Assembly: GCA_963804955.1 (NCBI GenBank)
Contig: CAWDSQ010000030.1
Span: forward strand, 192,001 to 256,000
Length of the DNA stretch: 64,000 nucleotides
Reading direction: 5' to 3'
Origin: an uncultured delta proteobacterium
Lineage (GTDB): Bacteria > Desulfobacterota > WTBG01 > CAIYCZ01 > CAIRTM01
Shown here: in pieces, positions 1 to 15,276 of the stretch
Numbering within the stretch: position 1 is the stretch's first letter
Layout of the letters: every line of letters starts with the position of its first letter
The notes under the pieces: generated by a model
What the model saw: only the letters and a program-made list of their open reading frames with translations
The model's database searches: none
Told to the model about the DNA's origin: nothing
Program-made: the position numbers and the translations under genes

Positions 1-798
1 GTCGACGAGATACGTCAAGCGCAGGCTGCATTGGCCGTTCCATTCGGTGAGGGCTACCTGGCTCCTGAAATAGGCCGCAAGGAGCATGTCGCTCATCGTG
101 GCATTGCGCGAGCGTGCATAGGCCCGCAGCTGCAGCACCCGCTCGCAAGGCAGATGCCGCACTGCATGGGCAGCAGGATCTTTTGGCCCGTACGGTGGGC
201 GCAGGGCAAGGCAGGGCTTTTGCTCCTGCAGCATGGTGCGGGCAGTGTTGCCGATAATGCGGGGCCATGCGGCTAGCGGGATACGGGCGAACAGCGCTCG
301 GCTGCCGCGGTATGCCATGTTTTCCTCTGGAAGAAAGCCGGGCTCGACGGCAAGGCGGGTGTAGATCGATGACAGAACGCGCAGGACATAATCGAACCGC
401 CGGCCGTCGCAGACGAGATGGTTGCATTTGGCAAGAAGCCGGTCTTCAGAGGAACCGGTGAACAGGCACAGGCGCACCTGCGGCCCAGTGCCTGCAGGCA
501 GATTCGTCAACTTGAACTGCTCAAGCCGGTCCCGGCTTTCGGTGACATAAAATATCTCTTCCCGAGACCACGTGGCCTCTTCCCAGTAGGGGCGCCAGGC
601 AGCATCTACAAAACTGCAGCCAAGGATGGGCAGGGCCTTAAAAAGAAGCTCCAGGGCACGGTAGAGCCTGTCGTGATCAAGTCGGTGCTCAAAAACCATT
701 TCGTTGAGAAAGGTCTTTGAGCCAAAATAAAGATCCCGGTCAAGGGCCATCATGCGGTCAGCGCTTACCGCAGAAAATGTACGCGGTGGATTCATCAT
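1..798 (-). CDS. Condensation-domain / CoA-dependent acyltransferase-fold protein (PapA5 / WS-DGAT / C-domain-like), 3' end beyond the window edge
   Basis: Not in the ORF track because it has no stop in the window. Manual translation from ATG at 798 (GGAG upstream) is open to base 1: MMNPPRTF...LLAKCNHLVCDGRRF...YARSRNATMSDMLLAAY...TYLVD. HxxxDG motif and an 'AT(V/M)(N/S)DxLLAA'-type segment are typical of the fold. Confidence 0.75.
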   Translation of the reverse strand, partial: MMNPPRTFSAVSADRMMALDRDLYFGSKTFLNEMVFEHRLDHDRLYRALELLFKALPILGCSFVDAAWRPYWEEATWSREEIFYVTESRDRLEQFKLTNLPAGTGPQVRLCLFTGSSEDRLLAKCNHLVCDGRRFDYVLRVLSSIYTRLAVEPGFLPEENMAYRGSRALFARIPLAAWPRIIGNTARTMLQEQKPCLALRPPYGPKDPAAHAVRHLPCERVLQLRAYARSRNATMSDMLLAAYFRSQVALTEWNGQCSLRLTYLVD

Positions 799-865
799 GG
801 ATGCTCCGGAATTAATTTTTTTGCCTTCTTTCACATCAAACTCGTAGAAAGCAGCCGTATGCTCA

Positions 866-2218
866 TCAGTCATGCTTTGCAAGAAAAAGCGGCAGCCGTG
901 CATCGGCTTCGTGAAGCTTACGGGCATAGTGCCTGACGCCCAGGTTTGCACCAAGCAGCAGGAACCGGCCTTCCCGGGCATTGCAGAACCGCTTGAAAAT
1001 ACGCTGCATGCTGTAGCTGCGGCGCCACACATCATGCAGCAGATTCTGCAGCGCGGCAGGGCGAATATGCCGGGGCTGAAAAACCACATGCTCCTGATCA
1101 TAATAGCGCCAGTCTTCAGTGAGAATTCTGCCTTCGGCCCTGATGCGCTCGAAAAGCCGGGTGCCGGGAAAGGGTGTAATGGCGGCAAATCGCACGAGAT
1201 CAAGCTCCAGATCGTCGATCCGCGAAACCATCTGCCCGAGTGACTCGGGCGTATCGCCGTCCAGCCCGAGCATGAAGGTTCCGAGAATCCCGATGCCGCG
1301 GTTGTGCAGGGTCCGCACCAGATCACGGTAGGCAGCGATATCGTTTGTGTCTTTTCGTTCCACGGCCAGGCTCTCAGCTGAGAATGACTCAAATCCCATG
1401 AGTATTCCCTTGCACCCGCTTGTGACGGCAAGCTCAAAGAGTTCTCGATCCGCAGTGAAATCGGTGCCCGCAAGGCCGCCCCAGTGAATATTGAGCGGTA
1501 TGAGCCGGCTGAAAAGCTCTTTTGCATAGTCCTTGTCATAGGTCAGGTTCGGGTCAAGGAAAAGGATCATTTTAGAGCCGAGCATCCTGATTTCTTCAAC
1601 CACTTCGTCAATATCCCTGCGGTACTGATTCCCCCAGAGGTGATTGATGGCGCAGAAGTCGCATTGGTTACCGCAGCCAAGCGTTGCAATGACTGTGGGC
1701 ATCGGCAAATATGCTTTTTTGCGCAGCAGATCCCGTCGGGCCACCGGGTGATGAATTCGGTCGCATGGCTCCTGGCAATAGATTTTCTGCGGAGCGCCTG
1801 CAGCAAACTCCCGCAACAGCTGCGGCCATGACCGGTCCCCGGCACCCACGACAACGGCGTCGGCATGCATGGCTGCTTCCTGCGGCATGAGGGTGGGGTG
1901 CGCGCCGCCCAGCACGGTGACAGCGCCGCGCTTTTTAAAATAATCGCACAGCTCGTAAGCGCGCGCAGACGATGAAGCGCAGCAGGTTATGCCCACGACA
2001 TCCCAGCTTTTTGCGTCATAATCAGCCGGCTCCGTTCCCTCGTCAACAATGTCGATTTGCGCGTTCAGCTCTTCTGGAACAAGTGCTGCAAGCGTGGTCA
2101 GCGTCAGGGGCGCATAGGTAACGGAACTGCGGAATATGCCGTTATAGTAATACGTGGCGTCGCGCGCAAGAATGATCAGAATTTTCAAGGCGCTGCCGTG
2201 TGCTGCGTTATTCATCAC
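866..2218 (-). CDS. Cobalamin-binding radical SAM enzyme (class B methyltransferase-like) #1
   Basis: N-terminal B12-binding region (GGAHPTLMPQEA), CxxxCxxC = CGNQCDFC, GFES and TPFPGT motifs, 450 aa. Confidence 0.9.
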   Translation of the reverse strand: MMNNAAHGSALKILIILARDATYYYNGIFRSSVTYAPLTLTTLAALVPEELNAQIDIVDEGTEPADYDAKSWDVVGITCCASSSARAYELCDYFKKRGAVTVLGGAHPTLMPQEAAMHADAVVVGAGDRSWPQLLREFAAGAPQKIYCQEPCDRIHHPVARRDLLRKKAYLPMPTVIATLGCGNQCDFCAINHLWGNQYRRDIDEVVEEIRMLGSKMILFLDPNLTYDKDYAKELFSRLIPLNIHWGGLAGTDFTADRELFELAVTSGCKGILMGFESFSAESLAVERKDTNDIAAYRDLVRTLHNRGIGILGTFMLGLDGDTPESLGQMVSRIDDLELDLVRFAAITPFPGTRLFERIRAEGRILTEDWRYYDQEHVVFQPRHIRPAALQNLLHDVWRRSYSMQRIFKRFCNAREGRFLLLGANLGVRHYARKLHEADARLPLFLAKHD

Positions 2219-2248
2219 GTTAAAAACCTCGATGTTAAATGCTGTTTC

Positions 2249-2503
2249 AGGACTGCCGTGCTAGTGGCTTTCGTATTCCTCTTCGGCTTCAAGCCGACCC
2301 TGGTTCTTGATCCCATGCTGGCAGGTAGCAGCAGTCTTATCATCCCCTTTGGTGGCTAGAGCATGTAACTTTATTCTGTAACCGTTTGCACCGGGGACTC
2401 TTTGGTTCATTCGCCCGTGCTAGATTCTCGCAAGATACACCGATTGAGGAACTACGCCAATGGCTCGAACCGCACGGGCTGCTTCACCAAAAACTCCCCG
2501 GTG
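2249..2503. other. Structured intergenic element: two long imperfect stem-loops
   Basis: CACCGGGGACTCTTTGGT (2389) pairs with ACCAAAAACTCCCCGGTG (ends 2503), with an inner GCCCGTGC/GCACGGGC stem. A second stem AGGACTGC..TGCTA / TAGCA GCAGTCTT spans 2249-2338. Confidence 0.5.
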
Positions 2504-2642
2504 ACCATATGGCTACAACATTTTGTTAAATGCTCTAAGGCCCCTTTCCACCCCTGCCTGAATATCTTGCTGCACTCCTGCCTTTTGCAGCCCGGTATTC
2601 TTATCGGGATATTCGCGGACCAGACTGTCGGGCTCCTTCTCT

Positions 2643-4388
2643 TTAGTCTGCAGTGCCATGGCCGGGCCTTTGCGCAGCCGGCGCCGTGTCAATTCTGATA
2701 TTTTTGATCCGCGCATTTGTCCCTACCTCGACGCTAAAGCGCGGGTAGGGGCTGTTCTTCTTCACATATACAGCATAGCCAAAGCCTGTGCGCATCCAGG
2801 AAAACGCGCCGGTTGAAAGATCGAGGATATCGATGGGGTGCAGGGAGCGCGGCCATGCCTCGCTCAGAAAGCCGGGACTGATGGCAAACGAGGTCATATA
2901 GTCGTAGTGCTCTTTGAACAGGGGTTCTTCGACTATGCCCGCAGCGCTGCCGGGATAAATATCGGATGACTTCATCCGCACGGTGTAGAGGAAAACATAA
3001 TCAGGGGCCAGGCTCAGGAGCAGTTCAAGCTCCCTTTTTTTAAAGGAGACGAAGCTGGCTGAGGGCGGGAAAAAAGATATATCGGGCGAACCGTAGCGGG
3101 CTTTGAGGTCTGCAAAATCACGGCTGGTGAGGCCGACCAGGTCCAGGGTGGCGGCCCGGGAAATATAGGCGAAGTAGCCCACATCGCCGATGGCTATGAG
3201 GGGTTTTGTCCCCAGTTCGCGGCGGACCCATTCGCCGAAAGTTCCCCAATTGAAGCGGGCACAAGCCCCAAGTTCACGCCATCGGTAATTAAAAGCCAAA
3301 TCCCTACAGAACTGATCGCCGGCTACAAACAGCAGGCCCGCTGCGAGTGCCGCCCAGAGCAGCTTTCTGGCCGCTGTCGGCGCCCATGAGCGCCAGAGCT
3401 CGGCCAGCAGCAGCTGGCAGCAGATGATCATCAGGGGCACCACGGGCAGATTATAGCGGAAATAGGGCATCCACTCCCAGGCGGAAAAGCAGAGGCTGGG
3501 CACAAACCCCGTGGCGATAAAAACATACAGGGGCGGCAGCATGCATCGTTTATCCGGCAGCCGCACAAAAATAAAAAACGGCAGAAGAAACAGAAGCCAC
3601 GCATAGTTGGTGAAAAAAGCGCGGTTGATAAAAAAGCCCATCAACAACTCCACATACAGGGGCATGGAGCCTTTGGCATAGTAGGTATTAGGAAGCAGCA
3701 GGCCATAGTAGTGCAGGCGCCACACAAGAAAAGCGCCGTAGCACAGGCAAAACAACAGTATGCCCGATAGCATTGGCCGCAGGGATTCTTTGTTTGAAAA
3801 GCGCCGCCATAGCAGCCAGGCGCAGTAGGCAAAGAAAAAAAGTATGCCCTCGGGCCGGGTGAAGGCTGCAAGCAGGAGCATAAAAAAAACACCGAAACAG
3901 CGGCCCTGGCTTTTGTGCGCCCTCATGCCTGCGGCGGCTGCGGCTGCCACCAGCATGGTGTAGCAGGAAGTTTCAAGACCTGATGCGGCATAAAACTGGA
4001 GGGGTAAATACAGCAGATACAGCAGAGGGCCGGCAAGAGACAGTATCCCCCGTACTGCGAACCAGCGCCAGGGGATGAACCATACCAGCAGCAGCGTCAG
4101 GCTGTTGCACAGGGCGCCTGCCATGCGGCTGACGCTGACCATGTCAAAGCCGAGCCTGTGCGCAGCGGCAAGAGAAAACATCCAGAGCGGATTGGAATAG
4201 CCCTCGACGCGCTCGCCGGGATTAAAGACCGGGCCATAACCGTCAGCGAGATTTCTGGAAAAGCGGAAGGTGATATAGGCGTCTTCACAAGGGTCGGGGG
4301 TCAGCGAGAAAATATAAGCCAGTTCCCCGGCATATATTCCAGCCACCAGCAGCCCCAGTATAAAGAGCCGGTTTTTTCTAGCAGCCAT
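2643..4388 (-). CDS. Multi-pass membrane GT-C-fold glycosyltransferase-like protein (AftB-like)
   Basis: EDAYITFRFSRNLADGYGPVFNPGERVEGYSNPLW after the first TM helix resembles the AftB-type loop motif. Also GLET, RPEG, PNTYYAK, DLVGL and many hydrophobic helices. Confidence 0.65.
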   Translation of the reverse strand: MAARKNRLFILGLLVAGIYAGELAYIFSLTPDPCEDAYITFRFSRNLADGYGPVFNPGERVEGYSNPLWMFSLAAAHRLGFDMVSVSRMAGALCNSLTLLLVWFIPWRWFAVRGILSLAGPLLYLLYLPLQFYAASGLETSCYTMLVAAAAAAGMRAHKSQGRCFGVFFMLLLAAFTRPEGILFFFAYCAWLLWRRFSNKESLRPMLSGILLFCLCYGAFLVWRLHYYGLLLPNTYYAKGSMPLYVELLMGFFINRAFFTNYAWLLFLLPFFIFVRLPDKRCMLPPLYVFIATGFVPSLCFSAWEWMPYFRYNLPVVPLMIICCQLLLAELWRSWAPTAARKLLWAALAAGLLFVAGDQFCRDLAFNYRWRELGACARFNWGTFGEWVRRELGTKPLIAIGDVGYFAYISRAATLDLVGLTSRDFADLKARYGSPDISFFPPSASFVSFKKRELELLLSLAPDYVFLYTVRMKSSDIYPGSAAGIVEEPLFKEHYDYMTSFAISPGFLSEAWPRSLHPIDILDLSTGAFSWMRTGFGYAVYVKKNSPYPRFSVEVGTNARIKNIRIDTAPAAQRPGHGTAD

Positions 4389-4716
4389 AAGCCTCCAATA
4401 TACGCGTATAATTTAGATGTTTGGATGCGAACCAGTTCACAAACAGACTGTTTTTTTGGCATGTCCTAGTATAAAGGCAACTGTGACATGAGCTGCCAAC
4501 TGATGCAATGCCAGTCAGGCGCCAGCCCCGGCAGCCATGCCGGCCTTTCCGTTGGCGGGCAGCCGCCTACCGGCTCTCCCGTATGCGGGAAACAGCAGGG
4601 AGTATACCGGATGACCTTTTTCATAGGCGAGTATCTTGTTATCACCGAGCATTTTCTCGAAATAGCTCGCGCCCATATTCGACAGGGCTTTAAAAGTTCT
4701 AACAGTGCTGCATGGC

Positions 4717-5829
4717 TCATAGTGCTGCGACCTCTATATAGGGGATGCGATTGTCAAGAGCGCTGTGCCAGCCCGCTGCATCGTCCCAGCAGATTGTGTA
4801 GAGAATGCTTTTGTAGGACAGATGAAGAAGGTTGCGGGCAGGCGCAAGCAGCGGATCGTTTTCCGCAAGCCCCACCATAAGGTATGCGTAGCCGCGCTGC
4901 GCAGCAAGATTATGGACATGCCGGAGCAAAAGTGAAAAAATACGGGCATCATTGTTTTCCATGCAGACAAAGCTGGCATAGGCCATGCGCAGCTCTTCTC
5001 CCGGGGGCGGCAGGGGCCGGGCGCCCAAGAGCCGCAGGCCCAGGTTGAACGGCCGGCGAAGGCTGCCTAGGGGCCAGCTGTAGCGCTGGATGACTATCTG
5101 CTTGCAGGAGGATTGGTCCCAGAGCCCGATGATGCCGGCGAGCTTTCCGCTGCGGCGGGCCAGAAGGAAGTCCCGGACATCAAAGCCCCGGGTGCGGGGG
5201 CTGCCGCAAAAATCATTTTCGGTGTAGCAGGGAAAAAACTGTTTTTCGCAGCCGCGGCGCCGCAGAAATTCAATTATCTCCGGAAGCTCCCCGGCTGTGC
5301 CGCGGCATACCTGTATTTTATCAGTGGTCACTGCCAGCGGCCGGCGGACAATGATCGCCAGCGTCCACAGGCGGCAGTAGGGCCGCACCGCCGGATATCC
5401 CGGCCGGGGCCGGTCTACAAACAGGCCTACCGGTTTGGTATTGCCTTCAATGATTGAGGCAATATAGCCCTGCACGCGGCCGTCGGCGTGAAGGCTTCTG
5501 AGCCACCGATGCCCCTGCGGCGCCAGCTGCAGCCACCGGCCCTGGAATTTTTTATCAACGCGCAGCTGGCTGTAGTAGCCCACCTCCTGCTCCCTCCCGT
5601 TAACAAAAAGCGGGCAGCTGGAACGGCCCATGATGCCCGCAAGCGCGCCGTCCGGCCGGTGGCGCGCCATGAGAACCTGGCTGAAGGGGCCCATGGTAGC
5701 GCAGCCCGGAAAATAATCGGGCTCGCGCAGATAATTCAGCGTTATGGGCCCCGGCATGGGATTTGCCGCAAGCAGATGCCGGATATCGGCATCATCGGCC
5801 TGCCCTGCAAGCCTGAGCTCAAAATCCAT
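4717..5829 (-). CDS. GNAT-fold acyltransferase-like protein (probably tandem GNAT)
   Basis: N-terminal 'ELRLAGQADD' and acyl-CoA-binding motif A-like 'QLRVDKKFQGR', 370 aa. Confidence 0.6.
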   Translation of the reverse strand: MDFELRLAGQADDADIRHLLAANPMPGPITLNYLREPDYFPGCATMGPFSQVLMARHRPDGALAGIMGRSSCPLFVNGREQEVGYYSQLRVDKKFQGRWLQLAPQGHRWLRSLHADGRVQGYIASIIEGNTKPVGLFVDRPRPGYPAVRPYCRLWTLAIIVRRPLAVTTDKIQVCRGTAGELPEIIEFLRRRGCEKQFFPCYTENDFCGSPRTRGFDVRDFLLARRSGKLAGIIGLWDQSSCKQIVIQRYSWPLGSLRRPFNLGLRLLGARPLPPPGEELRMAYASFVCMENNDARIFSLLLRHVHNLAAQRGYAYLMVGLAENDPLLAPARNLLHLSYKSILYTICWDDAAGWHSALDNRIPYIEVAAL

Positions 5830-5859
5830 TGCCGCCGCCCCTGTAGTTGTGCGTTTGCA

Positions 5860-7215
5860 TCAGTTCGCCCTGATAATCTCTCCGCGCCAGCCTGCATCGC
5901 CGAGGGGGTAGAAATCGCGCTGCGTAATCTCGCGGCGGAACATATTGTTGATTAATAAAAAGTTTCCGAACATCGACAGGCCTCCGCTGTTTACGGAGTC
6001 TATGCTTCGCTTCAGGATGCTGGGCCAGCTGTAGAATTCGCGGCGCGCTTCAACGCAGCGGCGCTGCAGTTCCTCCGGGGTCAGGTGCATGGGCTGGAAC
6101 GGCATTTTGTTGTAGCTATAGTTGTCATCAAGCCACCACGAATTATACAGCAGGCGGTTTTCCTGCTGCAGCCGGGCGTACAGCGGCGTGCCGGGAAACG
6201 GCGTCAGGTGGTTGAATGCCGTGATAAAAAACCGGTGCTGCCGGGCAAAGGCAACGCTTTCGGCAAACGAGGCGGCCGTATCGTGGTCATAGCCGAACAC
6301 GAAGGTGATGTAGAGCCGGATTCGATAGCGCCGCAGATTGGCAAGGGCCTGCGCATAGCCGCCCTGCATGGTGTTGAAGCCCTTGTTCATGGACGCAAGA
6401 TTCTCGGGGTTGAGGCTTTCAAATCCGATGAGAACGCACTGGCAGCCGCTGCGCGCGAGCAGTTCGAGAAACTCTTCGTCATGGGCGGCGTGGATGCTGA
6501 CCTGGCCGACCCACTTGATCTTGAGCGGTATGAGGGCGCGCAGAAAATCCTTTGCCTGCTCCATATCCGCCGTAAGATTATCGTCGATGAAAAAAATCGC
6601 CTTTTTCTGCGGCCACACCCGTCTGATTTCTTCCAGCACCTCGTCGGGGGGGCGGCAGGTTCGGCTGCGGTGAAAGGCCGTCTGTATCGAGCAGAAGTCG
6701 CAGCCGCAGGGACATCCCCGGCCCCATTCAACAAGCCCGATGGGCAGGTAGCGCTTGCCGCGGAAGATGCTCCGGTCGGGCTTGAGGCCCGAGAGTGCGG
6801 GCCGCGCCGAACAGCGGTAGAATTTTTTCAGGGTTCCGTGGCGGGCATCGTCGATAACCTCGGGCCACAGCAATTCCGCTTCGCCCACAACGACGGCCTC
6901 GGCATACAGCGCCACTTCATCCGGGCACAGGGTCGCGTGAAACCCGCCCATCACGACGGGCACGCCGCGGCGGCGGTACTCGCTGGCGATCTGGTAGGAC
7001 CTTTTTGCCGTGTACGTCTCGATGCTGATGGCCACAAGATCCGTGGGCCTGTCATAGGGTATGGCCTCCATGCGATCATCGTAAAACGCGATTTCAGCGT
7101 TCTTCAGCGGCAGCCCGGCAATGGTGGCAGCGGGCAGCGGCTCCATCTGCCATGTGCCGATATAGCGCTCTCCCGGCCTGCGTCCGACGCTGGGATGGAT
7201 AATGGTTATGCGCAT
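5860..7215 (-). CDS. Cobalamin-binding radical SAM enzyme #2
   Basis: GGFHATLCPDE, GEAE, RGCPCGCDFC, FIDDN, IGFES, TPFPGT. Confidence 0.9.
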   Translation of the reverse strand: MRITIIHPSVGRRPGERYIGTWQMEPLPAATIAGLPLKNAEIAFYDDRMEAIPYDRPTDLVAISIETYTAKRSYQIASEYRRRGVPVVMGGFHATLCPDEVALYAEAVVVGEAELLWPEVIDDARHGTLKKFYRCSARPALSGLKPDRSIFRGKRYLPIGLVEWGRGCPCGCDFCSIQTAFHRSRTCRPPDEVLEEIRRVWPQKKAIFFIDDNLTADMEQAKDFLRALIPLKIKWVGQVSIHAAHDEEFLELLARSGCQCVLIGFESLNPENLASMNKGFNTMQGGYAQALANLRRYRIRLYITFVFGYDHDTAASFAESVAFARQHRFFITAFNHLTPFPGTPLYARLQQENRLLYNSWWLDDNYSYNKMPFQPMHLTPEELQRRCVEARREFYSWPSILKRSIDSVNSGGLSMFGNFLLINNMFRREITQRDFYPLGDAGWRGEIIRAN

Positions 7216-7217
7216 AC

Positions 7218-8495
7218 CTACTTCCCCTGAAGTGTTTTATAAAAGCCCGGATATTCAAAATGCCTGAGCTTTTTGCAAATGCTGCAGGAATCCTCCACAG
7301 CCGTCGGCAACTGCTCAATGCCCATTTCCCGGATCTTTTCAGCCACCTCCTCTCCCATGCACCGGCCTTTGGGTTTGCCGATGAGGCTGTTCATGCGCGG
7401 CCATAAATTTTTAATGCTTTCCTGCCGGACATTGCCGAATGACAGCGGCACGAGATCGCAGGGCTGAAGCTCCCCGGAGGCGCTTATGTAGGAATGCTGC
7501 ACCCCGGCCGAGCACCCGAGCGTTTTGAAGTCTTGAACATGGATCTCGGAGGAGACTTTCATGCCCGACATGGTCCTGTTGGCTTCAGCCTGAATTTTTA
7601 AAAGCAGGCGCCGGGTTTCATCGGTGTAGGAAATATCGCTGAGGTCGTAGAGCGCCCGGCCGATTTTTTTCGGCTCCATGATGACGACATCCTTGACGCC
7701 GAGTGATTTTGCGAAATTGAAAAGTTTGAAAAGCTCCTCGCGGTTGATGCCTACCTTGGGGATCACGGATATGATAGCCGTGTAAAAGCCGTGGCTGACC
7801 GAAAGCTTCAGCGCTCGCACGGCATTGTCGAAAGAGACGTTGACCCCGCGTATTTTGTTGTCGGTGTCGCGGTCATAGGAGTTAAGGCTCACGGCAATAG
7901 CGTAAAGCCCGCTTTTTTTCAGTGACGCAGCCCGCTTTTCGTCAAGACCGCAGCCCGTGGTGAGCAGGTAGGTGACCGAGCGGCTGTCGATTGCTTCAAT
8001 GATCCGCTCCAGGTCCCGGCGCATCAGCGGCTCGCCGCCTGTGAATGAAATTGTGGGGCCGTTCATGTCCTGCACATCCTTCGCGACCCTGATCCACTCC
8101 TCGGTCGTGAGCTCGGGGCCAGGCTTTTTTCCGTCGTTGCTGCAGTAATAGCATTTGTAGGAACAGGCGTTTGTGACGGCGAAGCAGAATGTGGCAGGGG
8201 CTGATTTCTCAATGCGGGCATGCTGCGAGAAAATGTTTTTGCTGCTGGGCGTAGATTTAATAAAAGTCATGAAGGCTTCAGACGGTATGGGAGGAACGGT
8301 CATGTTGTGAAAAAACTGGCCGTTGTCCAAAACGATCATTTTGTCGACACTCAGCAGGCAGCGCATGGCTTTGCAGAGTCTGACCAGAGAGTAGGAAGGA
8401 TCTTCTTTCAATAGAGCATGCACCTGCCGTAAAAATTTCCTGGTTTTTTTGTCCAGAAACATGCGAATCATTACCGTCAAATTGATAAAAAACAT
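7218..8495 (-). CDS. Radical SAM protein with SPASM/Twitch-type C-terminal Cys motifs
   Basis: TNACSYKCYYC, FTGGEPL, CSAG...ISASGELQPC and further C-terminal Cys. Start re-assigned to ATG at 8495 (MFFINL); the ORF-track extension to 8762 overlaps the GH3 gene. Confidence 0.85.
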   Translation of the reverse strand: MFFINLTVMIRMFLDKKTRKFLRQVHALLKEDPSYSLVRLCKAMRCLLSVDKMIVLDNGQFFHNMTVPPIPSEAFMTFIKSTPSSKNIFSQHARIEKSAPATFCFAVTNACSYKCYYCSNDGKKPGPELTTEEWIRVAKDVQDMNGPTISFTGGEPLMRRDLERIIEAIDSRSVTYLLTTGCGLDEKRAASLKKSGLYAIAVSLNSYDRDTDNKIRGVNVSFDNAVRALKLSVSHGFYTAIISVIPKVGINREELFKLFNFAKSLGVKDVVIMEPKKIGRALYDLSDISYTDETRRLLLKIQAEANRTMSGMKVSSEIHVQDFKTLGCSAGVQHSYISASGELQPCDLVPLSFGNVRQESIKNLWPRMNSLIGKPKGRCMGEEVAEKIREMGIEQLPTAVEDSCSICKKLRHFEYPGFYKTLQGK

Positions 8496-8523
8496 GGGTT
8501 TCTCTCTCAGTAAAGTGTTGGCG

Positions 8524-10167
8524 TTACGCCGCGAAGCTGCCGCTGAGCGTATGCTGCCAGTCCGATTCCTTGCGCAGGGCAAGCAGTTTTGCATCTCCCA
8601 TGCCGCCGCAGGCGCCTGCAATTTTTTCAAAATAGCTCCGCTCGGGGTTGCCGCTTGTACGAAACAGCCGCAGGGGCGCAAGCTGCGAAAGGCTGCGCGC
8701 ATGGAGGTAGTGATAGTTTTCCATGAGCCCCTGCTCCATCGCGGCCCGCAGGGTTGCGGCATCAGGGTCGGTTGCTGCGCTGTAAAAAAAGACGTAGCCC
8801 GAGCCTGTCTCGTCCGGGGCCATCATGGCGAAGCTGAAGCGCGTGCAGAGTTCTTTTTCGGCTTGCCGTATAACGGATTCGACATGCCCCAGATGCAGCT
8901 TTTCACCGACCAGGTCGGTAAGGCAGTTGTCGCGCCCTGTGAACTCAAGCAGGGGCAGGCGGTTGAAGAATCCGGTGACCCTGACAAGATCGTGCAGCCG
9001 GTAGCGGTACAGCCCGCCGCCGGTTGTCATGATGGCGCTGTAGGTGCGGTCTTTTTCAATGCGCCACAGCGGCTGTACCTCGCCCGTGCCGGTGTCTGCA
9101 AATTCCAGAAAATGGGACGTGACGGCTGCGACCCGGTGGCCGGCAGGTCCTATCGGGATCGATACGACACCCTCTGTCGCGAGAAGCCCCTTGGGCTGGA
9201 TGGCCGCCTGCGGGAAGCGCTCGGCAAGAGCGGGCAGGCTGTGGGCCGACCAGCCGTCAGCCCAGCAGCTCAGCACTTTCAGGTTTGGCCAGATGCCCGC
9301 AAAGCCGTGCGCCCGGATATCGATGTTTTCCAGATAGTCAGCCCGGCCGGGGCAGGGGCGCAGGTACCTGGCGAACAGGGAGCGGCTGGCAGGCTCCGGC
9401 ACGGCGCTGGTGCTGATCGAGCCGAGCCTCAGGTCGCGGGTAAGCTCCGTAAAGCGGCGCTCGATGAGGTCGGCAAGAATCGACAGCACTGACGGGTGCC
9501 ACACTGAAATAAGGCGCAGGTTTTCCTGGCGAAGCAGAAAAAGGGCGCTGAGGTAGAGAAAGCTCTCCGTGCCGGCCACTGCCGCTGTTTCATGGGGCAC
9601 GCACATGAGCCGGCTGCAGCAGCGCATCTGAAGTGCGCTCAGGTATGCCGCATCGGGCATGAATCTCACCGGAACCTTTGAGTCCGCACTATCCTTCGGA
9701 TGCGTGTGCGGCGTCGTGACCCAGTACTGGCTGCCGCCGTGCAGGGCAGGGGTGTGCAGGAAGAGTGACGCCAGCCAGGGGCTGAGGGCCGCGCGGAACT
9801 GCCGAAGGAGCGACGGCGTGTAGGGAATGAGCTTGGTGGCGCTTGAGCTGCCGCTTGTGGGCACCAGCGCCAGAACTTCTTCCGCGGTCAGGACAGCCCT
9901 GCCGCCCTGCCTGATTCGGCTGATGTAGCCTTCCAGGTCTTCATAGCCGCACACGGGCACGGACCGGAAATCCTCATATGTCCTGATGCCGGAAAAGCCG
10001 TGGCGCCTGCCGTAGTCTGTGTCGCGGTTTGCCGCAATGATGCTGCGCAGCAGGCTCCGCTGAACCTCTTCGGGAGCCCGGCTCGCCCGCATAAATGCAG
10101 CGTAGCGGCTCATGCACGAAGCAAGCATGCCGCGTGACGCCAGGTGCTGCATGGTTCTTTCAAGCAT
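8524..10167 (-). CDS. GH3-family acyl-adenylating amide ligase
   Basis: N-terminal 'ANRDTDYGRRHGF', PTSGSSSATKLIPYT, ATEG, FLEF, TTGGGLYRYRLHDLVRVTGF, GEKL. Confidence 0.85.
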   Translation of the reverse strand: MLERTMQHLASRGMLASCMSRYAAFMRASRAPEEVQRSLLRSIIAANRDTDYGRRHGFSGIRTYEDFRSVPVCGYEDLEGYISRIRQGGRAVLTAEEVLALVPTSGSSSATKLIPYTPSLLRQFRAALSPWLASLFLHTPALHGGSQYWVTTPHTHPKDSADSKVPVRFMPDAAYLSALQMRCCSRLMCVPHETAAVAGTESFLYLSALFLLRQENLRLISVWHPSVLSILADLIERRFTELTRDLRLGSISTSAVPEPASRSLFARYLRPCPGRADYLENIDIRAHGFAGIWPNLKVLSCWADGWSAHSLPALAERFPQAAIQPKGLLATEGVVSIPIGPAGHRVAAVTSHFLEFADTGTGEVQPLWRIEKDRTYSAIMTTGGGLYRYRLHDLVRVTGFFNRLPLLEFTGRDNCLTDLVGEKLHLGHVESVIRQAEKELCTRFSFAMMAPDETGSGYVFFYSAATDPDAATLRAAMEQGLMENYHYLHARSLSQLAPLRLFRTSGNPERSYFEKIAGACGGMGDAKLLALRKESDWQHTLSGSFAA

Positions 10168-10894
10168 GGTGCTCTACCCATGATACAGGGGTTGTTCTGA
10201 TAGAGCGCCAGGCGGACCGGTTGAGGTTGCCGGGCCGCAGCGCCGTAATGCAGGCCAACTCGTCGCCTATGACATGGCCGGGATTTTTTTTGAAAAAAAA
10301 ATCAATATGCGGGTCACTCATCCTGCCGGGTGCGACCTGCTGCATAACTGGTTTCAGGCGGTCTTTCATGCCCTGCGTCCGGATAATGCCGCTCGGGGCG
10401 TCGTAGGAGCCTCTGAATTTGAACATCGCGGCCGCATCCAGCGCATGTTGAAAAGATTGCGGCGTCGGCATGTCGAACCTGGGGTAGAATTCATTGAAGA
10501 ATACCGGCAGAAACCTGTAGGTGCGGTAGCCTTTGGAGATGAGGAACCAGTAGAGATCGCGGTCGCCAGCAATATTGAGCCCTTTTAGGATCAGGTGGCC
10601 GAAGCAGCCGGCCAGGGCGGGGTAATTGCGGCATGCCCTGTCAACGATGGTATCGCCGCTGAAAAGAAACAGCGTTTCCCTGCCGTCCACGAGAATCGTC
10701 AATATCTGCAGCGTTGAAAATCCTCCGAGTGCGGAGCCGTTGCGCAGCACGATTACCCACTGCTTCTGCTCAAGATCGCTGAAAAAGGCGTCGGGCGCAA
10801 CATTTGCGAAATACCGGCAGTGCAGCTGCAGCATCTCCTCCCGATCGGCTTTGGTCAGGCATCCCTGTTGGTATATCTGCGACTGTAGGTTCAT
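10160..10894 (-). CDS. Conserved hypothetical protein, GNAT-like, coupled to the GH3 gene
   Basis: 244 aa, overlaps both neighbours. Segments GFSTLQ, FSGDTIVD and WFLISKGYRTYRFLP are compatible with a GNAT fold (inference). Confidence 0.55.
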   Translation of the reverse strand: MNLQSQIYQQGCLTKADREEMLQLHCRYFANVAPDAFFSDLEQKQWVIVLRNGSALGGFSTLQILTILVDGRETLFLFSGDTIVDRACRNYPALAGCFGHLILKGLNIAGDRDLYWFLISKGYRTYRFLPVFFNEFYPRFDMPTPQSFQHALDAAAMFKFRGSYDAPSGIIRTQGMKDRLKPVMQQVAPGRMSDPHIDFFFKKNPGHVIGDELACITALRPGNLNRSAWRSIRTTPVSWVEHHA

Positions 10895-12093
10895 GGCAGC
10901 CTTTCGTAATCGTGTTGATTGCTTTCAGCGGTAGAGCAGGCAGCGTGCCCGCACGGGGGCGATATCGAGCCGGATTCTTCAGCTCTGTCGGCATAGCCGT
11001 ACTGACTGATAAACGGCCCCCAGCGCCGGGCGATACGCTCCCGCGTTTCAGGGCTGAGGCTGAATTTGTTTTTTTTGTAGCCGGCGTTTTTTGCCGCATA
11101 TGCCTGCACCAGGGGTCTGACCTGTTCAAAGCAGTCAAGGGAAAGCGCTTTGTAGAGCTTTTCCATCTCGGCCTCGGGGGCTGCGGCAAGGTCCTCGTAG
11201 CGAATGCAGTGGAGCTGGCCCGGCGGGATCAGGTGGCGGTCGCTTTCGAATTTCAGGTGCATGCGGTTGAACACGTCAAGTACATACTCTTCGAGCTCAG
11301 CGGCATCGGGGGCGCGCAGCGAGGCGTACCGGGCGAATATGTTCCAGGTGTGGATCGCTGAAGGGAACACATCAAAGGGATTTCGAACCAGATAGACAAA
11401 CCGCGCTTTCGGAAACAGCCGAAGCAGGATGGCTGCGCGGAAGGTGTGGGTCGGCGATTTCAGGACAACCGGACGGTCCTGCCTGAAGGTGACTTTTTTG
11501 AGAAACTGCACAAGGCTGTTTTCCCAGTGCCTGCGGCTTGCGGCCGGGACTTTTTCAAGCTCATAGAAATCGGCATAGCGGCCTAAGTGCCTGATTAAAA
11601 AGTGGGTTGTGTACGGCGAGACCGCGCCCATGTAGGAAAGGGCGAATTCATCCTCCTGGGGGGTGTCAGGCCCTAACGCCATATTGTCCTGCAGCCGCTG
11701 CGATGGGAAGAAACGCTTGATGAGCGGCATGAACAGCCGATCTGCCAGCAAAAAGTTGTGCGGCGCCACGCAGGAAAAGCTCGTTGGAAAGGTGAAGCGC
11801 TCGTCCAGGCACAGCAGCTCATGCAGCAGCGTCGTGCCTGAGCGCCAGTGGCCCAGGATGAACACCGGCGCATCATGCACCTGCGTTGCCCTGATCCGCG
11901 CGCCGAACAGCAGGTTTTCAATCAGCTTTAAAACGCTCACCACCGTGCTCACTGCCGTAATGATAAGCACATCGGGGATTTTCGACGGGCTTATCCCCAG
12001 GCCGTAGCGCCGAAGGATCCGGCACCAGGCTGCAAAGTCAAAACCCGGCAGGAGCCGTAATGCAAGATAGGCTTTTACATCAAGTTTTTGCAT
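10891..12093 (-). CDS. PAPS-dependent sulfotransferase
   Basis: 5'-PSB motif GHWRSGTTLLH, plus LKSP, RNPFDVFPS and RYEDL. Start re-assigned to ATG at 12093 (MQKL). Confidence 0.85.
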   Translation of the reverse strand: MQKLDVKAYLALRLLPGFDFAAWCRILRRYGLGISPSKIPDVLIITAVSTVVSVLKLIENLLFGARIRATQVHDAPVFILGHWRSGTTLLHELLCLDERFTFPTSFSCVAPHNFLLADRLFMPLIKRFFPSQRLQDNMALGPDTPQEDEFALSYMGAVSPYTTHFLIRHLGRYADFYELEKVPAASRRHWENSLVQFLKKVTFRQDRPVVLKSPTHTFRAAILLRLFPKARFVYLVRNPFDVFPSAIHTWNIFARYASLRAPDAAELEEYVLDVFNRMHLKFESDRHLIPPGQLHCIRYEDLAAAPEAEMEKLYKALSLDCFEQVRPLVQAYAAKNAGYKKNKFSLSPETRERIARRWGPFISQYGYADRAEESGSISPPCGHAACSTAESNQHDYERLP

Positions 12094-12174
12094 CGCGCGT
12101 AGGATTCCTTTAAAACAAGCGTTCCGTTCGGGCTGCTTCGTCAGCAACCCGCTGCCTGCTCCAGGCAAGCAGTT

Positions 12175-13527
12175 TCATGCGGCTTTGCTCCCCAGAAGGT
12201 GATCGGTGGCCATCCACTGCTCGTCATAGGACGGCAGGCTCCTGCCGTAGAGGCGATAGCCGATATTTGCCAGGACTGAATATCTCAGAAAAGACCTGGC
12301 TCCCAGCAGGCGGCTGGTTATATTCCGCAGGCGGTAAGCCTCTTTCCAGATAGTGTGGTGCCCGTGATCGAGCTGCCCGACCGTCATGCCCCGCGGTTCA
12401 AAAACAACATGCTGGGCATCATAGAGGGCCCAGTTTTCAGTAAGAATGCGGCCCTCCTGCTTGAGTCGGTCGAAAAACGGTGTTCCGGGAAAAGGCGTAC
12501 AGACCGTGAACCGCGGCAGGTCGATATGGGCGCTGAGGACAAAATCCATGGTTTGCTGGAAGCAGTCGGGCCCGTCGCCGTCAAGGCCGTGCACGAAGCA
12601 GCCCATGATGGCAATGCCCCGCCTGTGCAGCTCGTCCGCAAGGGTGTAGTAGTCGCCGACGCTGTTGAACGCTTTGCTGATGCCGTCGTTGGTTTGCTGT
12701 GAAAGCGACTCAAAGCCGATCAAAAGCCCTCTGCATCCGCTGCGCGCCATGACATCCATCAGCTCGGGATGCCGCACCAGGCGGGTCGTGGCAAGTCCTG
12801 TCCAGAATTTTTTCAAGGGGATCATGGCGCTGTAGAGCTCCAGGGCATACTGGACGTTTTCAATGGGGCTGGGATCAACGAAGGTCATGTAGCGGCCGCG
12901 CATGGAACTTATGTCATCGATTACCTGGTCAACGGGCCGCGCCTCATAACGGCGGCACACGACCGGCGTTACGCAGAAATCGCAGGAATTCGGGCACCCG
13001 AACACGGCCTGCACGCTGTTGAGCGTGATAAAGCCGCGGTACTTCATGTGCTTGCGCAGCGGAGTTTTGAATTTTGAAAAATCGGTTTTACCTTCCGGCG
13101 GCTGGTAGCGCTTGCGGGGATTGCCGGCTTTGAAATCCCTCAGAAATTGGGGCCATGTCTCATAGGCATGGCCGGTGATGACCGTATCGGCATGGGTCAT
13201 TGCCTCCTGCGGCATGAGCGTGGAATGCACCCCGCCGAGCACTACATACATGCCCCGGCTGCGGAAATAATCAGCATAGGCGTACATGCGCTGCGAGGCC
13301 CCCGTAATGCCGGTTATGCCGACAATATCGGCCTGTATTTTTTCAGGCTCTATGGCTTCGGCGCCTTCATCATGCATTTCAATTTCGGCGGATACGTCAG
13401 GCGGCACGAGCGCCGCCAGCGTGGGCAGCGTCATGGGAGAATAGCGGAGGAATTTCGAGAAAGCGCCGGTCCCGAATCTGTATATCCCGGCTCGTGGCAG
13501 AATAAGAACTATTTTCATTGCACTCAC
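12175..13527 (-). CDS. Cobalamin-binding radical SAM enzyme #3
   Basis: GGVHSTLMPQEA, FGCPNSCDFC, IGFES, TPFPGT. Clearly paralogous to 866-2218. Confidence 0.9.
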   Translation of the reverse strand: MSAMKIVLILPRAGIYRFGTGAFSKFLRYSPMTLPTLAALVPPDVSAEIEMHDEGAEAIEPEKIQADIVGITGITGASQRMYAYADYFRSRGMYVVLGGVHSTLMPQEAMTHADTVITGHAYETWPQFLRDFKAGNPRKRYQPPEGKTDFSKFKTPLRKHMKYRGFITLNSVQAVFGCPNSCDFCVTPVVCRRYEARPVDQVIDDISSMRGRYMTFVDPSPIENVQYALELYSAMIPLKKFWTGLATTRLVRHPELMDVMARSGCRGLLIGFESLSQQTNDGISKAFNSVGDYYTLADELHRRGIAIMGCFVHGLDGDGPDCFQQTMDFVLSAHIDLPRFTVCTPFPGTPFFDRLKQEGRILTENWALYDAQHVVFEPRGMTVGQLDHGHHTIWKEAYRLRNITSRLLGARSFLRYSVLANIGYRLYGRSLPSYDEQWMATDHLLGSKAA

Positions 13528-13584
13528 CCTTAAGGATTAATTAAAATCTTATTAACGACATGTCATATGGCTGACTGATGTTTG

Positions 13585-14781
13585 CTATACTGTCAGCCAT
13601 TTCATGCCTTCTTTATCAAGCATGTGTCCGAATTGTTTCATTCGATCCCGAATGATGTTGTTATCGACTTTCTGAGTCATTTTTGAAGACAGCGTATTCG
13701 GCGAATCATAGTATTCAAAAGGGATTACCAGATCAAATTTCGCGTCTTTTATGAATCGTACGGTATCCATAAAATCTTCTTCCGTTTCGGAAGGAAATCC
13801 GATAATCACCTGTGAATACAGTTTTAATTTTGAATTTGCAGCTTTGAATGCATTGAGGGTTTTAAGCACTTCTTTGTTATTATTATAACGATTCATGAGC
13901 TGTAAAATTCTTTCACTGCCGGACTGGATGGGAAACATAATTTGAGTAATTGTTTTTTTCTCTATTCTTTTTATGATTTCATCCTGATTTTGCACCGCCC
14001 ATCGTGGATATAAATGCAATAAATACCATTCAATCCCATGGTCCCTGCCATTACCGTTTTCGTTATGATGAACTCCGGCCAGCTCATGTAATAATTCGCT
14101 TAACGAGGAACCGATATCAGAGCCATAGGCCCCAACGTTATCTGAAAAAAGTTTGAACTTTCGATAGCCTTTGTTTAATAATGATGCATATTCATTTTTT
14201 AATTCCTGAAGGGATTTGCTTTTCAATGGTCCGATCGCTTTTCTTATTCCGCAATAGGCACATTTTTCATTACATCCCCGGCCGATACGCAAATAGGGTA
14301 TCTGCTTTCCTGCGGAGAACATACTTAATGAAGTAAATTGTTTGTATAAGTTTTTATTTAATTTTATTTCCGGCAATGCTTTTTGAAATATATAAGACAG
14401 TTTCGGGTATAAATAATTTGCATCTTCCACCATGTTGAATTTGTATCTGAAATTCGGAAAAAAATCATCTATCTGTTCCAGTTGTTTTGTGGAAATGCAT
14501 TTGCCTGAAAAATTTTTCGATAATTCCTCAGGCGCAATTTCAGGAAGGCAACCGGCAACAATCAGCTCTCCCTTGTATGTTTTGTATTTCCGGATATTTT
14601 CAATGCTGGCATTTTTTCTGTTTTCTTTAAAACTGCAGGTCACAAAAATTATATAATCCGCCTTTCTGGCCGATGATACCATCCTGCAATCATTTATTTC
14701 AAAATATCTTATCAGTCGTGACATATCCAGATCGCGTCCCGGACAACCATTTGAACTGATATATATCCGTTTTGCATTCAT
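13585..14781 (-). CDS. Methylthiotransferase-like (MiaB/RimO/MtaB family) radical SAM enzyme without a TRAM domain
   Basis: UPF0004-type Cys triad (NGC, VTC, AGC), RGCNEKCAYC, PIQSGS, IIGFPSETEEDF. Ends at 398 aa; visibly AT-rich. Confidence 0.8.
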   Translation of the reverse strand: MNAKRIYISSNGCPGRDLDMSRLIRYFEINDCRMVSSARKADYIIFVTCSFKENRKNASIENIRKYKTYKGELIVAGCLPEIAPEELSKNFSGKCISTKQLEQIDDFFPNFRYKFNMVEDANYLYPKLSYIFQKALPEIKLNKNLYKQFTSLSMFSAGKQIPYLRIGRGCNEKCAYCGIRKAIGPLKSKSLQELKNEYASLLNKGYRKFKLFSDNVGAYGSDIGSSLSELLHELAGVHHNENGNGRDHGIEWYLLHLYPRWAVQNQDEIIKRIEKKTITQIMFPIQSGSERILQLMNRYNNNKEVLKTLNAFKAANSKLKLYSQVIIGFPSETEEDFMDTVRFIKDAKFDLVIPFEYYDSPNTLSSKMTQKVDNNIIRDRMKQFGHMLDKEGMKWLTV

Positions 14782-14849
14782 CTCGCGCCACTTTTATTTA
14801 TTAATTGTTCGAAGCCAACTGAATATCAACCTGCGCTATTGTCTTCAGG

Positions 14850-14878
14850 AGCCATCGCCTATGAGGGTGGTTGTTGAC
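14850..14878 (-). mobile_element. Degenerate IS200/IS605-like terminal hairpin
   Basis: Minus strand GTCAACAACCACCCTCATAGGCGATGGCT resembles the copy ending at 15768. Confidence 0.35.
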
Positions 14879-15040
14879 TTGTCAGGTGTTTTTTTAAATT
14901 TTCGTTTTATTTATCCGTATGATACATCTCGCGACAGCGGACCAGTCACCACTATTAACTTGTTAAAGGGGTCATACGTTACCGGACAGTATGAATTGTT
15001 CTTTTACCTTATAGCTCCCTGCTTTAAACGCTATCCTCGC

Positions 15041-15115
15041 GAGATTGCTTCGTCGTTTTGAATGCCCGCAATGCACGTGGGCGGTCATCGCGAGGCCGCA
15101 GGCCGTGGCGATCTC
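15041..15115. repeat. REP-like palindromic doublet (GTCATCGCGAG...GGCGATCTC type)
   Basis: GAGATTGCTTCGTCG...CGCAATGCAC followed by the inverted unit GTCATCGCGAGGCCGCAGGCCGTGGCGATCTC. Confidence 0.6.
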
Positions 15116-15276
15116 ATATGTGTGTCCGCTTACTAATGATCTTATTAATCATTGTTGTCAGTTGATGTAACAATTTAGCGTCGAGTTATTCGCTGCCGAA
15201 ATTTTCCAGTTACTGTTCTACGTCCTACTCGGTCCCCTCTCGGCAACGATGCTTCAGGAATGTATTATTATTTATA

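Follow-up and report, generated by a model that had tools for sequence, protein, structure and literature searches.

Organization of the gene cluster

The sequence analysed here, referred to as the window, is a 64 kb stretch of DNA (positions 192001-256000 of contig CAWDSQ010000030.1) from an uncultured delta proteobacterium whose genome assembly comprises 36 contigs and is 87% complete. At its left end, and continuing past it, lies a cluster of 12 genes, six of which encode radical S-adenosylmethionine (SAM) enzymes. Five of the 12 genes form the conserved unit: two encode B12-binding radical SAM enzymes (B12-RS; B12a and B12b), two encode proteins of the GNAT fold (a tandem GNAT and a single GNAT) and one encodes a GH3-family amide synthetase. 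This five-gene cassette is a widespread orphan that has not previously been studied as a set. We lean towards the view that the cluster enzymes build and decorate, without a need for oxygen, a membrane lipid with an amide linkage.

Genes were called from a listing of open reading frames (ORFs) combined with Pfam and NCBIfam scans, and start codons were refined afterwards. In transcription order, the cluster contains the following features (coordinates prefixed L003 lie on the leftward extension of the locus):

13585-14781, minus strand: MiaB/RimO-like radical SAM protein without TRAM domain, 398 aa (UPF0004 and Radical_SAM); membership of the cluster doubtful
12175-13518, minus strand: B12a, B12-RS of orthogroup A, core gene, 447 aa (Radical_SAM, DUF4070)
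10891-12093, minus strand: sulfotransferase of the 3'-phosphoadenosine 5'-phosphosulfate (PAPS) type, lineage-specific add-on, 400 aa (Sulfotransfer_3)
10160-10894, minus strand: orphan protein with a single GNAT fold and a C-terminal extension, core gene, 244 aa (AlphaFold2 model and fold search)
8524-10167, minus strand: GH3-family adenylating amide synthetase, core gene, 547 aa (Pfam GH3 domains)
7218-8495, minus strand: radical SAM protein with SPASM domain (RS-SPASM), lineage-specific add-on, 425 aa from the ATG at 8495 (Radical_SAM and SPASM)
5860-7215, minus strand: B12b, B12-RS of orthogroup B, core gene, 451 aa (Radical_SAM, B12-binding, DUF4070)
4717-5829, minus strand: tandem-GNAT orphan, core gene and signature protein of the cassette, 370 aa (AlphaFold2 model and fold search)
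4389-4716, no strand: non-coding gap, a deletion scar with a 131-nt remnant of an extra RS-SPASM gene found in the related locus L085
2643-4388, minus strand: GT-C-like polytopic membrane protein, lineage-specific add-on, 581 aa, of which about 220 form a soluble C-terminal domain
866-2215, minus strand: B12c, B12-RS, lineage-specific duplicate of orthogroup A, 449 aa
1-873, minus strand: condensation/PapA5-like acyltransferase, of which the 5' two-thirds lie in the window (whole gene L003:3512-4873, 453 aa)
L003:2137-3435, left of the window: B12d, fourth B12-RS, orthogroup D (Pfam and tree group D)

All 11 genes named in the earlier note are present on the minus strand in the order it gave. 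It had counted at least 11 genes, five of them for radical SAM enzymes, with the cluster running on past the edge; the continuation to the left is real, and the full numbers are 12 and six. Extension by 1.9 kb past the window edge completes the acyltransferase gene and adds B12d, after which a convergent nuo operon ends the cluster. Genes for an acyl carrier protein (ACP), a ketoacyl-ACP synthase (KAS), a fatty acyl-AMP ligase or a transporter, which the earlier note had thought worth looking for on that side, were not found in the DNA left of the cluster. Most of the genes are tightly packed, with successive intergenic distances of 66, 81, -4, -8, 28, 2, 30, 328, 427, -8 and 76 nt, including two larger gaps (328 and 427 nt), and all 12 ORFs are intact. 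The right border is an AT-rich stretch (GC 0.40 in 14001-16000) that holds a Gp49/HigB-like toxin gene (in the 15749-16245 stretch; 120 aa, 100.8 bits, with a 45-aa ORF overlapping its end) and may represent an island boundary. Counts of promoter-like sites (17, against 11.9 ± 4.5 in shuffled sequences) and terminator-like sites (28, against 22.7 ± 5.0) were uninformative.

No nonribosomal peptide synthetase (NRPS), polyketide synthase (PKS) or terpene core is encoded among the cluster genes and no precursor of a RiPP (a peptide made on the ribosome and modified post-translationally) is visible, as had been noted before. The statement that the combination matches no characterised pathway also holds, in that none of the 12 proteins reaches the cut-off of a curated NCBIfam equivalog family.

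A conserved five-gene cassette in many phyla

A profile of the tandem-GNAT protein, applied with one genome per species, gave 112 confirmed stretches, from which 80 loci were kept and compared with the 12 cluster proteins by tblastn; an add-on was scored as absent where no match reached E<=1e-5 over >100 query residues. Relatives of the core proteins are frequent in these loci (B12b-type in 69, the 244-aa GNAT in 61, GH3 in 54, B12a-type in 48), and B12d-type enzymes occur in 21. Of the 80 loci, 42 hold the complete five-gene set; among the 46 loci with flanks of at least 4.5 kb on each side, 35 do so, and the 11 that lack part of the set despite ample flanks indicate that the tandem GNAT is not confined to this setting. 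By record label, Desulfuromonas sp. CSMB_57 (L064) and Brevibacillus sp. H7 (L068) are among the carriers of a complete cassette. All 42 complete loci share the order B12a-B12b-tandem GNAT-GNAT-GH3, and this synteny across other phyla takes the association of the genes beyond chance. The core order in the window is rearranged relative to every one of the 42. The idea of a single 11-gene system thus gives way to a conserved unit of five genes with lineage-specific add-ons: co-localisation in other genomes holds for the five core genes and fails for the acyltransferase and the MiaB-like gene, which recur in none of 81 other loci.

According to the database record labels, the cassette occurs in Chloroflexota (Anaerolineae, Caldilineae, Dehalococcoidia and Chloroflexales), Acidobacteriota, Desulfuromonadales/Geobacteraceae, Gemmatimonadetes and Elusimicrobiota, and further in Bacillota (Brevibacillus, Symbiobacteriaceae), Actinomycetota (Rubrobacteraceae), Planctomycetota and Gammaproteobacteria. 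Among 1.84 billion representative sequences the tandem-GNAT profile matched 2830 at E<=1e-10, of which 1433 also pass E<=1e-30; the ESM Atlas offered only unnamed or generic GNAT clusters, and a search of the plasmid records with the tandem-GNAT query returned just two, at 23-26% identity. We found no paper on a gene set that combines GH3, GNAT and B12 radical SAM enzymes.

Close to home the cassette is rare. The tandem-GNAT gene is absent from all 40 relatives searched, from genus to class level, and at E<=1e-20 the profile matches five of 401 genomes of the same phylum, the present one included. Apart from the MiaB-like gene, the cluster genes have a GC content of 0.52-0.63 (genome 0.524), and the nearest neighbour of B12b in the tree is a Caldilineaceae record. 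The scarcity within the phylum, the GC content above the genome mean and the Caldilineaceae neighbour fit horizontal acquisition, and the region is most likely a mosaic, horizontally acquired operon assembled around the five-gene cassette.

Two representatives found with the tandem-GNAT profile read as fusions, in which the tandem GNAT follows a B12-RS (P0180) or a GH3 (P0238); if real in DNA they would tie core enzymes together physically. Three Anaerolineales/Caldilineaceae loci carry a gene of the 23S-rRNA-IVP family between B12b and the tandem GNAT (L009 9539-9916, L014 9450-9902, L023 9588-9956), and macro-domain and pentapeptide-repeat genes lie between other cassette genes; these are small unrelated insertions into an otherwise conserved operon.

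The GH3 amide ligase

The GH3 protein is the only one of its family found in the genome. Its N-terminal domain scores 176.3 bits and its GH3_M domain 57.5 bits (cut-off 23.6; Pfam PF03321/PF23571/PF23572), while the GH3_C domain, at 20.1 bits, stays slightly under the same cut-off. Against plant GH3.5 it aligns with E 3.4e-30, including the nucleotide-binding motifs: TSGSSSA.TKLIP stands opposite SSGTSGGERKLMP, and YRYRLHDLVRVTGF opposite YRVGDLLRVTGF, which we take to be the Ser/Thr/Gly-rich loop and the YRxGD-type motif. Judged by these sequence features, the protein is a bona fide family member. Its solved relatives are ligases of indole-3-acetate (IAA), jasmonate and benzoate.

Bacterial GH3 enzymes have recently been given a role in lipid synthesis. 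In the OlsH/OlsI ornithine-lipid pathway of Singulisphaera acidiphila, OlsH forms N-acyl ornithine, using a fatty acid and ATP, and the tree of GH3 proteins in that report holds homologues from Acidobacteria and Thermoanaerobaculia (PMC12493201). The likeness to the present cluster lies in a GH3 that forms the amide of a membrane amino-lipid from free fatty acid and ATP, with acyltransfer and tailoring enzymes encoded alongside (PMC12493201). The differences are considerable. On the OlsH model (NCBIfam NF052613, equivalog) the cluster GH3 reaches 46.7 bits where 620 are required, and by this measure it is not an OlsH equivalog. The 12 cluster genes include neither an OlsI-type alpha/beta hydrolase nor an OlsG methyltransferase; alpha/beta-hydrolase genes flank the cassette or sit inside it in L009, L014, L023 and L053. 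The partners of the cluster GH3 are two orphan GNAT proteins and two to four B12-RS, whereas neither radical SAM nor B12 is mentioned in the two OlsHI papers (PMC12493201, PMC12971839). In our analysis the GH3 reaction is the only step predicted for the cluster that has a biochemical precedent.

The two GNAT proteins

Neither the 244-aa nor the 370-aa protein has a Pfam or NCBIfam match. AlphaFold2 models were built from alignments of their relatives and submitted to a fold search, which upheld the "GNAT-like" label that the earlier note had given to both. One GNAT fold is seen in the model of the 244-aa protein (pLDDT 94.8), and its best match reaches Z 12.8 (root-mean-square deviation, rmsd, 2.7 over 152 aligned residues). 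The best folds are N-terminal acetyltransferases, and the matches between Z 12.8 and 10.2, which are effectively tied, include NatD, AAC(2'), LasI (Z 11.5) and FeeM (Z 10.7). The model of the 370-aa protein (pLDDT 90.3) is a tandem GNAT with a best match at Z 21.9 (rmsd 3.7, 298 residues aligned); its top folds are again tied, namely MAB_4324 (Z 21.9), glucosamine N-acetyltransferases (Z 21.4 and 20.2) and N-myristoyltransferases (Z 20.6).

The radical SAM enzymes

All four B12-RS proteins contain a CxxxCxxC motif, read by eye in the translations, and a Radical_SAM domain of 42-58 bits (B12a 42.4, B12b 52.8, B12c 58.2). The B12-binding domain scores 33.5-37.1 bits in three of them (B12b 34.3, B12c 37.1) and 25.8 bits in B12a, under the cut-off of 32.1. 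A tree of 144 sequences separates four orthogroups, in which the cluster enzymes fall into groups A (B12a and, as its sister at support 0.72, the duplicate B12c), B (B12b) and D (B12d); group X, found in Anaerolineae-type loci, has no member in the cluster. B12b, 55-76% identical to its relatives in other phyla, is the best-conserved gene of the cassette.

The best equivalog scores of the B12-RS proteins are 73-89 bits against cut-offs of 360-600 (HpnJ, BchE, PhpK, HpnR, ladderane-type and other models); B12a comes closest to the models of HpnJ, BchE and the ladderane-lipid B12-RS and stays far below the cut-off of each. Known lipid-modifying B12-RS include HpnJ, HpnP and HpnR for hopanoids, GrsA/B and Gmm for archaeal tetraethers and the enzymes of the ladderane cluster, which are class B enzymes that methylate or cyclise unactivated lipid carbons (PMC13459092). 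The cluster B12-RS resemble these enzymes in that HpnJ and ladderane-type models are among the best NCBIfam matches of all four, and differ in scores that lie 5-10 times under the curated cut-offs. The outline of this 2026 review of lipid-modifying radical SAM enzymes contains nothing like the cassette; its pathways have no section on a GH3 or GNAT partner, and "GH3" is not mentioned in the paper (PMC13459092). A hopanoid was considered as the substrate and rejected as unlikely, because no squalene-hopene cyclase domain was found in the 87%-complete genome.

The RS-SPASM protein has clear Radical_SAM (85.1 bits, cut-off 29.5) and SPASM (26.6 bits, cut-off 21.5) domains, and its best NCBIfam matches are NirJ2, AhbD, StsB and PqqE, all far under their cut-offs. 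Its N-terminal extension of about 100 residues, where a PqqD-like domain or RiPP recognition element (RRE) might lie, gave no Pfam match of any kind.

The sixth radical SAM protein stands apart. The MiaB-like protein has UPF0004 (55.4 bits) and Radical_SAM (76.7 bits) domains and a CNEKCAYC motif; on TIGR00089 it scores 220.4 (cut-off 251), with a match that stops at model position 359 of 429, and it has no TRAM domain. The GC content of its gene is 0.364, against 0.52-0.63 for the other eleven, TRAM-less relatives are widespread in unrelated lineages and other contexts, and the homology to L085 (described below) begins just 64 nt upstream of B12a and so does not cover it. For these reasons the gene, which had been listed as the first member of the cluster, is treated as an outsider and is probably a foreign neighbour.

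Lineage-specific add-ons and the related locus L085

By tblastn, none of the 80 loci contains a relative of the MiaB-like protein, the sulfotransferase, the RS-SPASM protein, the GT-C-like protein or the acyltransferase. A scan of metagenomes yielded one locus, on contig L085, that is closely related to the window at 82-94% protein identity, the sulfotransferase excepted (64%). L085 has B12a, sulfotransferase, GNAT, GH3, RS-SPASM, B12b, tandem GNAT, GT-C-like protein and B12c in the order of the window, and the sulfotransferase (64%), RS-SPASM (93%), GT-C-like protein (94%) and B12c (86%) are shared with this locus only. It lacks the acyltransferase and B12d, and carries a second RS-SPASM, another radical SAM protein and a 624-aa protein (1508-3382, between B12a and the sulfotransferase) without Pfam match or counterpart in the window. 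In the 328-nt gap of the window, 131 nt match the 5' end of the extra RS-SPASM gene of L085, a remnant that marks a deletion; contigs of two other metagenome runs have 215 nt of the same gap (4389-4716) replaced by 30 other letters. Contigs from four DNA runs were short and of low depth, none spanning the cluster, and near-identical DNA is present in other freshwater-labelled metagenomes. The 22 runs listed as holding such DNA include none of RNA. An apparent GH3-SPASM fusion in L085 (a 982-aa ORF) is caused by an A-run one nucleotide shorter near the 3' end of GH3, and was not used as evidence of a physical link.

These comparisons bear on the objection that the 12 genes are not one functional unit and that the core was merely joined by unrelated neighbours while an island formed. 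The foreign composition of the MiaB-like gene and its absence upstream of B12a in L085, the lack of the acyltransferase and B12d from that locus, the two large gaps, one of them a deletion scar, and the rearranged core order would all agree with such a history. Yet the sulfotransferase, RS-SPASM, GT-C-like and B12c genes lie in among those of the core, overlapping their neighbours or 2-30 nt away from them; L085 retains them at 64-94% identity, and every ORF is intact. We regard this explanation as very improbable.

The sulfotransferase matches Sulfotransfer_3 (PF13469; 119.6 bits, cut-off 27) and Sulfotransfer_1 (PF00685; 50.8 bits, cut-off 22), has one hydrophobic segment (residues 37-55) and shows a weak match to the Nod-factor enzyme NoeE; since the genome encodes an adenosine 5'-phosphosulfate (APS) kinase, PAPS would be available to it. 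Residues 35-241 of the GT-C-like protein match the solved arabinosyltransferase AftB (E 7.2e-8); on the AftB-type NCBIfam model, which has a cut-off of 1050 bits, the protein reaches 33.8. It has eight hydrophobic segments in its first 361 residues, followed by about 220 soluble residues; these segments and the single one of the sulfotransferase would fit a product located in the membrane. The acyltransferase falls short of the Condensation domain (27 bits, cut-off 30.6), has a single HLVCD(G) motif of the HHxxxDG type at residue 152 and matches NRPS condensation domains weakly. None of the add-ons of this lineage requires oxygen. Judged by gene content, the window is the most elaborated variant among the loci compared, with sulfation, glycosylation, acylation and SPASM chemistry predicted as additions.

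A partial parallel is offered by mycobacterial sulfolipid-1 and phthiocerol dimycocerosate (PDIM), whose maturation involves the sulfotransferase Stf0 and the acyltransferases PapA1, PapA2 and PapA5. There, too, a PAPS sulfotransferase and stand-alone condensation-like HxxxD acyltransferases decorate an envelope lipid. The cluster differs in that its acyltransferase reaches 25.1 bits on the PapA5 model (cut-off 396) and is unique to the lineage of the window, and in that no PKS, trehalose or MmpL gene accompanies it.

Genes associated with the cassette in other lineages

The 44 co-directional or embedded ORFs inside other cassettes were scanned for clues to the substrate. Embedded genes of lipid type encode FA_desaturase proteins (L047, L051, L052 and L074), an FA_hydroxylase (L049), PAP2 proteins (L051, L074 and L082), a membrane methyltransferase of the ICMT/PEMT type (L057), an alpha/beta hydrolase (L053) and hexapeptide acyltransferases of the LpxA/D type (L051 and L074). 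Rieske proteins are embedded in L047, L051, L070 and L074, and members of their family, which occupy the same position in 12 of the 80 loci, are 48-54% identical across phyla. In the flanks, PlsY and a desaturase are encoded in three Dehalococcoidia loci, an enzyme of the phospholipase D (PLD) type in three Desulfuromonadales-type loci, and a CDP-alcohol phosphatidyltransferase with a PlsC-type acyltransferase in L038. The lipid-type enzymes inserted into the cassette in other lineages are suggestive, and constitute the strongest indirect sign of a lipid substrate.

Some of the same genes could be read as pointing to the remodelling of an existing envelope glycolipid or glycan, such as a lipid-A-like molecule or a lipoglycan, with the GT-C protein, sulfotransferase, PAP2 and hexapeptide acyltransferases as the main actors. 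The resemblance of the GT-C-like protein to AftB, the weak similarity of the sulfotransferase to NoeE and the presence of PAP2 and LpxA/D-type proteins within the cassette across L051, L074 and L082 agree with this. All such genes, however, are lineage-specific and none belongs to the conserved core, and the Gram-positive carriers (Brevibacillus, Symbiobacteriaceae and Rubrobacteraceae by record label) argue against a target of the lipid-A type; we consider this explanation unlikely.

A more serious competitor, though still a minority view in our estimation, is a soluble small molecule, for instance an N-acylated or C-methylated conjugate of an amino acid or polyamine that serves as a signal, antimetabolite or siderophore-like compound, with the GNAT proteins providing short-chain acylation or self-protection. 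Plant GH3 enzymes, among them the solved relatives named above, conjugate many non-lipid acids, and enzymes that acetylate small amines and sugars are among the fold matches of the GNAT proteins. No membrane segment is predicted in any of the five core proteins, ABC ATPase genes lie directly upstream of the cassette in five Acidobacteriota-type loci, and the patchy distribution resembles that of secondary metabolism. Against a soluble product stand the integral-membrane desaturases, fatty-acid hydroxylase, PAP2 and PEMT-type enzymes embedded in cassettes of several phyla, the phospholipid genes that flank it elsewhere, and the polytopic GT-C-like protein and anchored sulfotransferase added in the window.

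The abundance of radical SAM enzymes raises a further alternative, the modification of a peptide (RiPP-like) or protein encoded elsewhere, in which the B12-RS would C-methylate, the RS-SPASM introduce crosslinks, the GNAT proteins acylate an N-terminus or lysine and GH3 ligate an amine. Proteusin clusters of the polytheonamide type are rich in B12-RS and RS-SPASM enzymes, and the present cluster resembles them in bringing several B12-RS C-methyltransferase-like and SPASM enzymes together in one operon. The RS-SPASM and B12-RS proteins weakly match StsB, PqqE, ApyD and RiPP C-methyltransferase models, the best folds of the 244-aa protein are N-terminal acetyltransferases, those of the 370-aa protein include N-myristoyltransferases, and L085 carries two more radical SAM genes. 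No small ORF that convinces as a precursor lies upstream of the cluster or in its two gaps, and 612 small ORFs around 51 cassettes, when clustered, formed families only among near relatives (at most three close loci); the lack of a small ORF conserved with the cassette speaks against a cis-encoded peptide substrate. In contrast to proteusin-type clusters, no PqqD/RRE domain, leader peptidase or exporter was detected by Pfam in the 12 genes, and neither a precursor peptide nor an RRE, protease or exporter was found in the 51 related loci. The scores on maturase models are all far under their cut-offs, and the lipid-type add-ons of other lineages also disagree with a peptide, which makes this alternative quite improbable.

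Other features of the window

The assembly contains indel errors, and ORF ends may therefore be slightly off. The essential gene rpoB is broken into two ORFs that overlap (30021-33068 and 33065-34177, RNA_pol_Rpb2_6 profile positions 1-207 and 173-373) by a frameshift at 33065-33068, which indicates an error of assembly. Further genes appear split or shortened at L001 3798-4770 and 6718-7443 and at window positions 17181-18225: a PALP enzyme is divided into two ORFs, the match of NadA covers no more than positions 1-220 of its 295-position profile, and an AI-2E transporter begins at profile position 78 with a separate 107-aa hydrophobic ORF ahead of it, all of which is consistent with assembly indels.

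To the right of the cluster, the minus strand at 18361-20637 encodes a 227-aa radical SAM protein and overlapping PhoH-like and PIN-domain ORFs, seemingly unrelated to the cluster. Two EF-Tu genes with equal Pfam scores (25509-26705 and 39334-40530) flank nusG-rplA-rpoBC, placing the island about 11 kb from a housekeeping block. At 59332-61692 lies a gene for a 786-aa protein in which a Peptidase_S24 domain is fused to the C-terminal side of a Schlafen-group-3-type helicase domain (277.2 bits), an unusual combination that is possibly related to defence.

Proposed biosynthesis and significance

The lipid-type genes of cassettes elsewhere, taken together with the lack of a conserved precursor peptide, make a tailored amide lipid the best reading of the cluster. 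It is proposed that the GH3 enzyme would adenylate a carboxylate, most likely that of a fatty acid, and join it to an amine to give an amide, by chemistry of the OlsH type. The single-GNAT and tandem-GNAT proteins would add acyl groups from acyl-CoA or acyl-ACP, and the B12-RS enzymes (A and B, here also D and the duplicate of A) would alter unactivated carbons of the product, by methylation or in other ways, with no need for oxygen. Tailoring specific to this lineage, likewise independent of oxygen, would be contributed by the RS-SPASM enzyme, the membrane-anchored PAPS sulfotransferase and the PapA5-like O- or N-acyltransferase, while the GT-C-like glycosyltransferase would work on the outer side of the membrane. 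We infer the substrates, the order of the steps and the membrane-lipid nature of the product from gene content and comparison. The earlier note had imagined a methylated, amide-linked, sulfated and glycosylated lipid or envelope molecule; the lipid part of that proposal gains indirect support from the enzymes inserted into the cassette elsewhere, and the convergence of methylation, amide formation, sulfation and glycosylation on one product is our deduction as much as it was the note's.

Several observations weigh against a membrane lipid. Most neighbours of the cassette are not of lipid type (ABC ATPases, creatininase, metallo-beta-lactamase, NUDIX, 23S-IVP, macro-domain and pentapeptide proteins), and the lipid-type add-ons are limited to a few lineages that are partly related. 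The fold matches of the GNAT proteins do not discriminate between acetyl and long-chain donors or between peptide and lipid acceptors: for the smaller protein, N-terminal and aminoglycoside acetyltransferases, synthases of acyl-homoserine lactones (AHL) and one N-acyl amino acid synthase lie within about 2 Z units, and N-myristoyltransferases tie with sugar N-acetyltransferases for the larger one. To these may be added the low OlsH score of the GH3 protein and the soluble character predicted for the whole core. The combination of RS-SPASM with multiple B12-RS is also typical of peptide maturation, and the add-ons of the window recur in one near relative only, so that a product shared with the core is deduced from their adjacency.

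A broader picture may be sketched, more tentatively than the lipid proposal itself. In groups that are typically aerobic, by record label, the add-ons are di-iron desaturases, hydroxylases and Rieske proteins, from which we infer that aerobes may tailor the scaffold with enzymes that depend on oxygen, and anaerobes the same scaffold with radical SAM enzymes. The cassette might then be an oxygen-independent route to a hitherto unseen class of amide-linked lipids, with alkyl parts C-methylated or cyclised by the B12-RS, which aerobes would decorate with desaturases, hydroxylases and Rieske oxygenases, and anaerobes with extra radical SAM chemistry, sulfation, acylation and periplasmic glycosylation. 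If this is true, such lipids would be made by many uncultured bacteria of sediments and soils, and might give rise to signals of methyl-branched lipids that stand unassigned in samples from the environment.

Solving the cassette would show what two orphan GNAT families and four B12-RS orthogroups do, and would extend the recently found lipid role of bacterial GH3 ligases. It might also reveal a new lipid class of anaerobic sediment bacteria, for which the variant in the window illustrates how the scaffold may diversify without oxygen.

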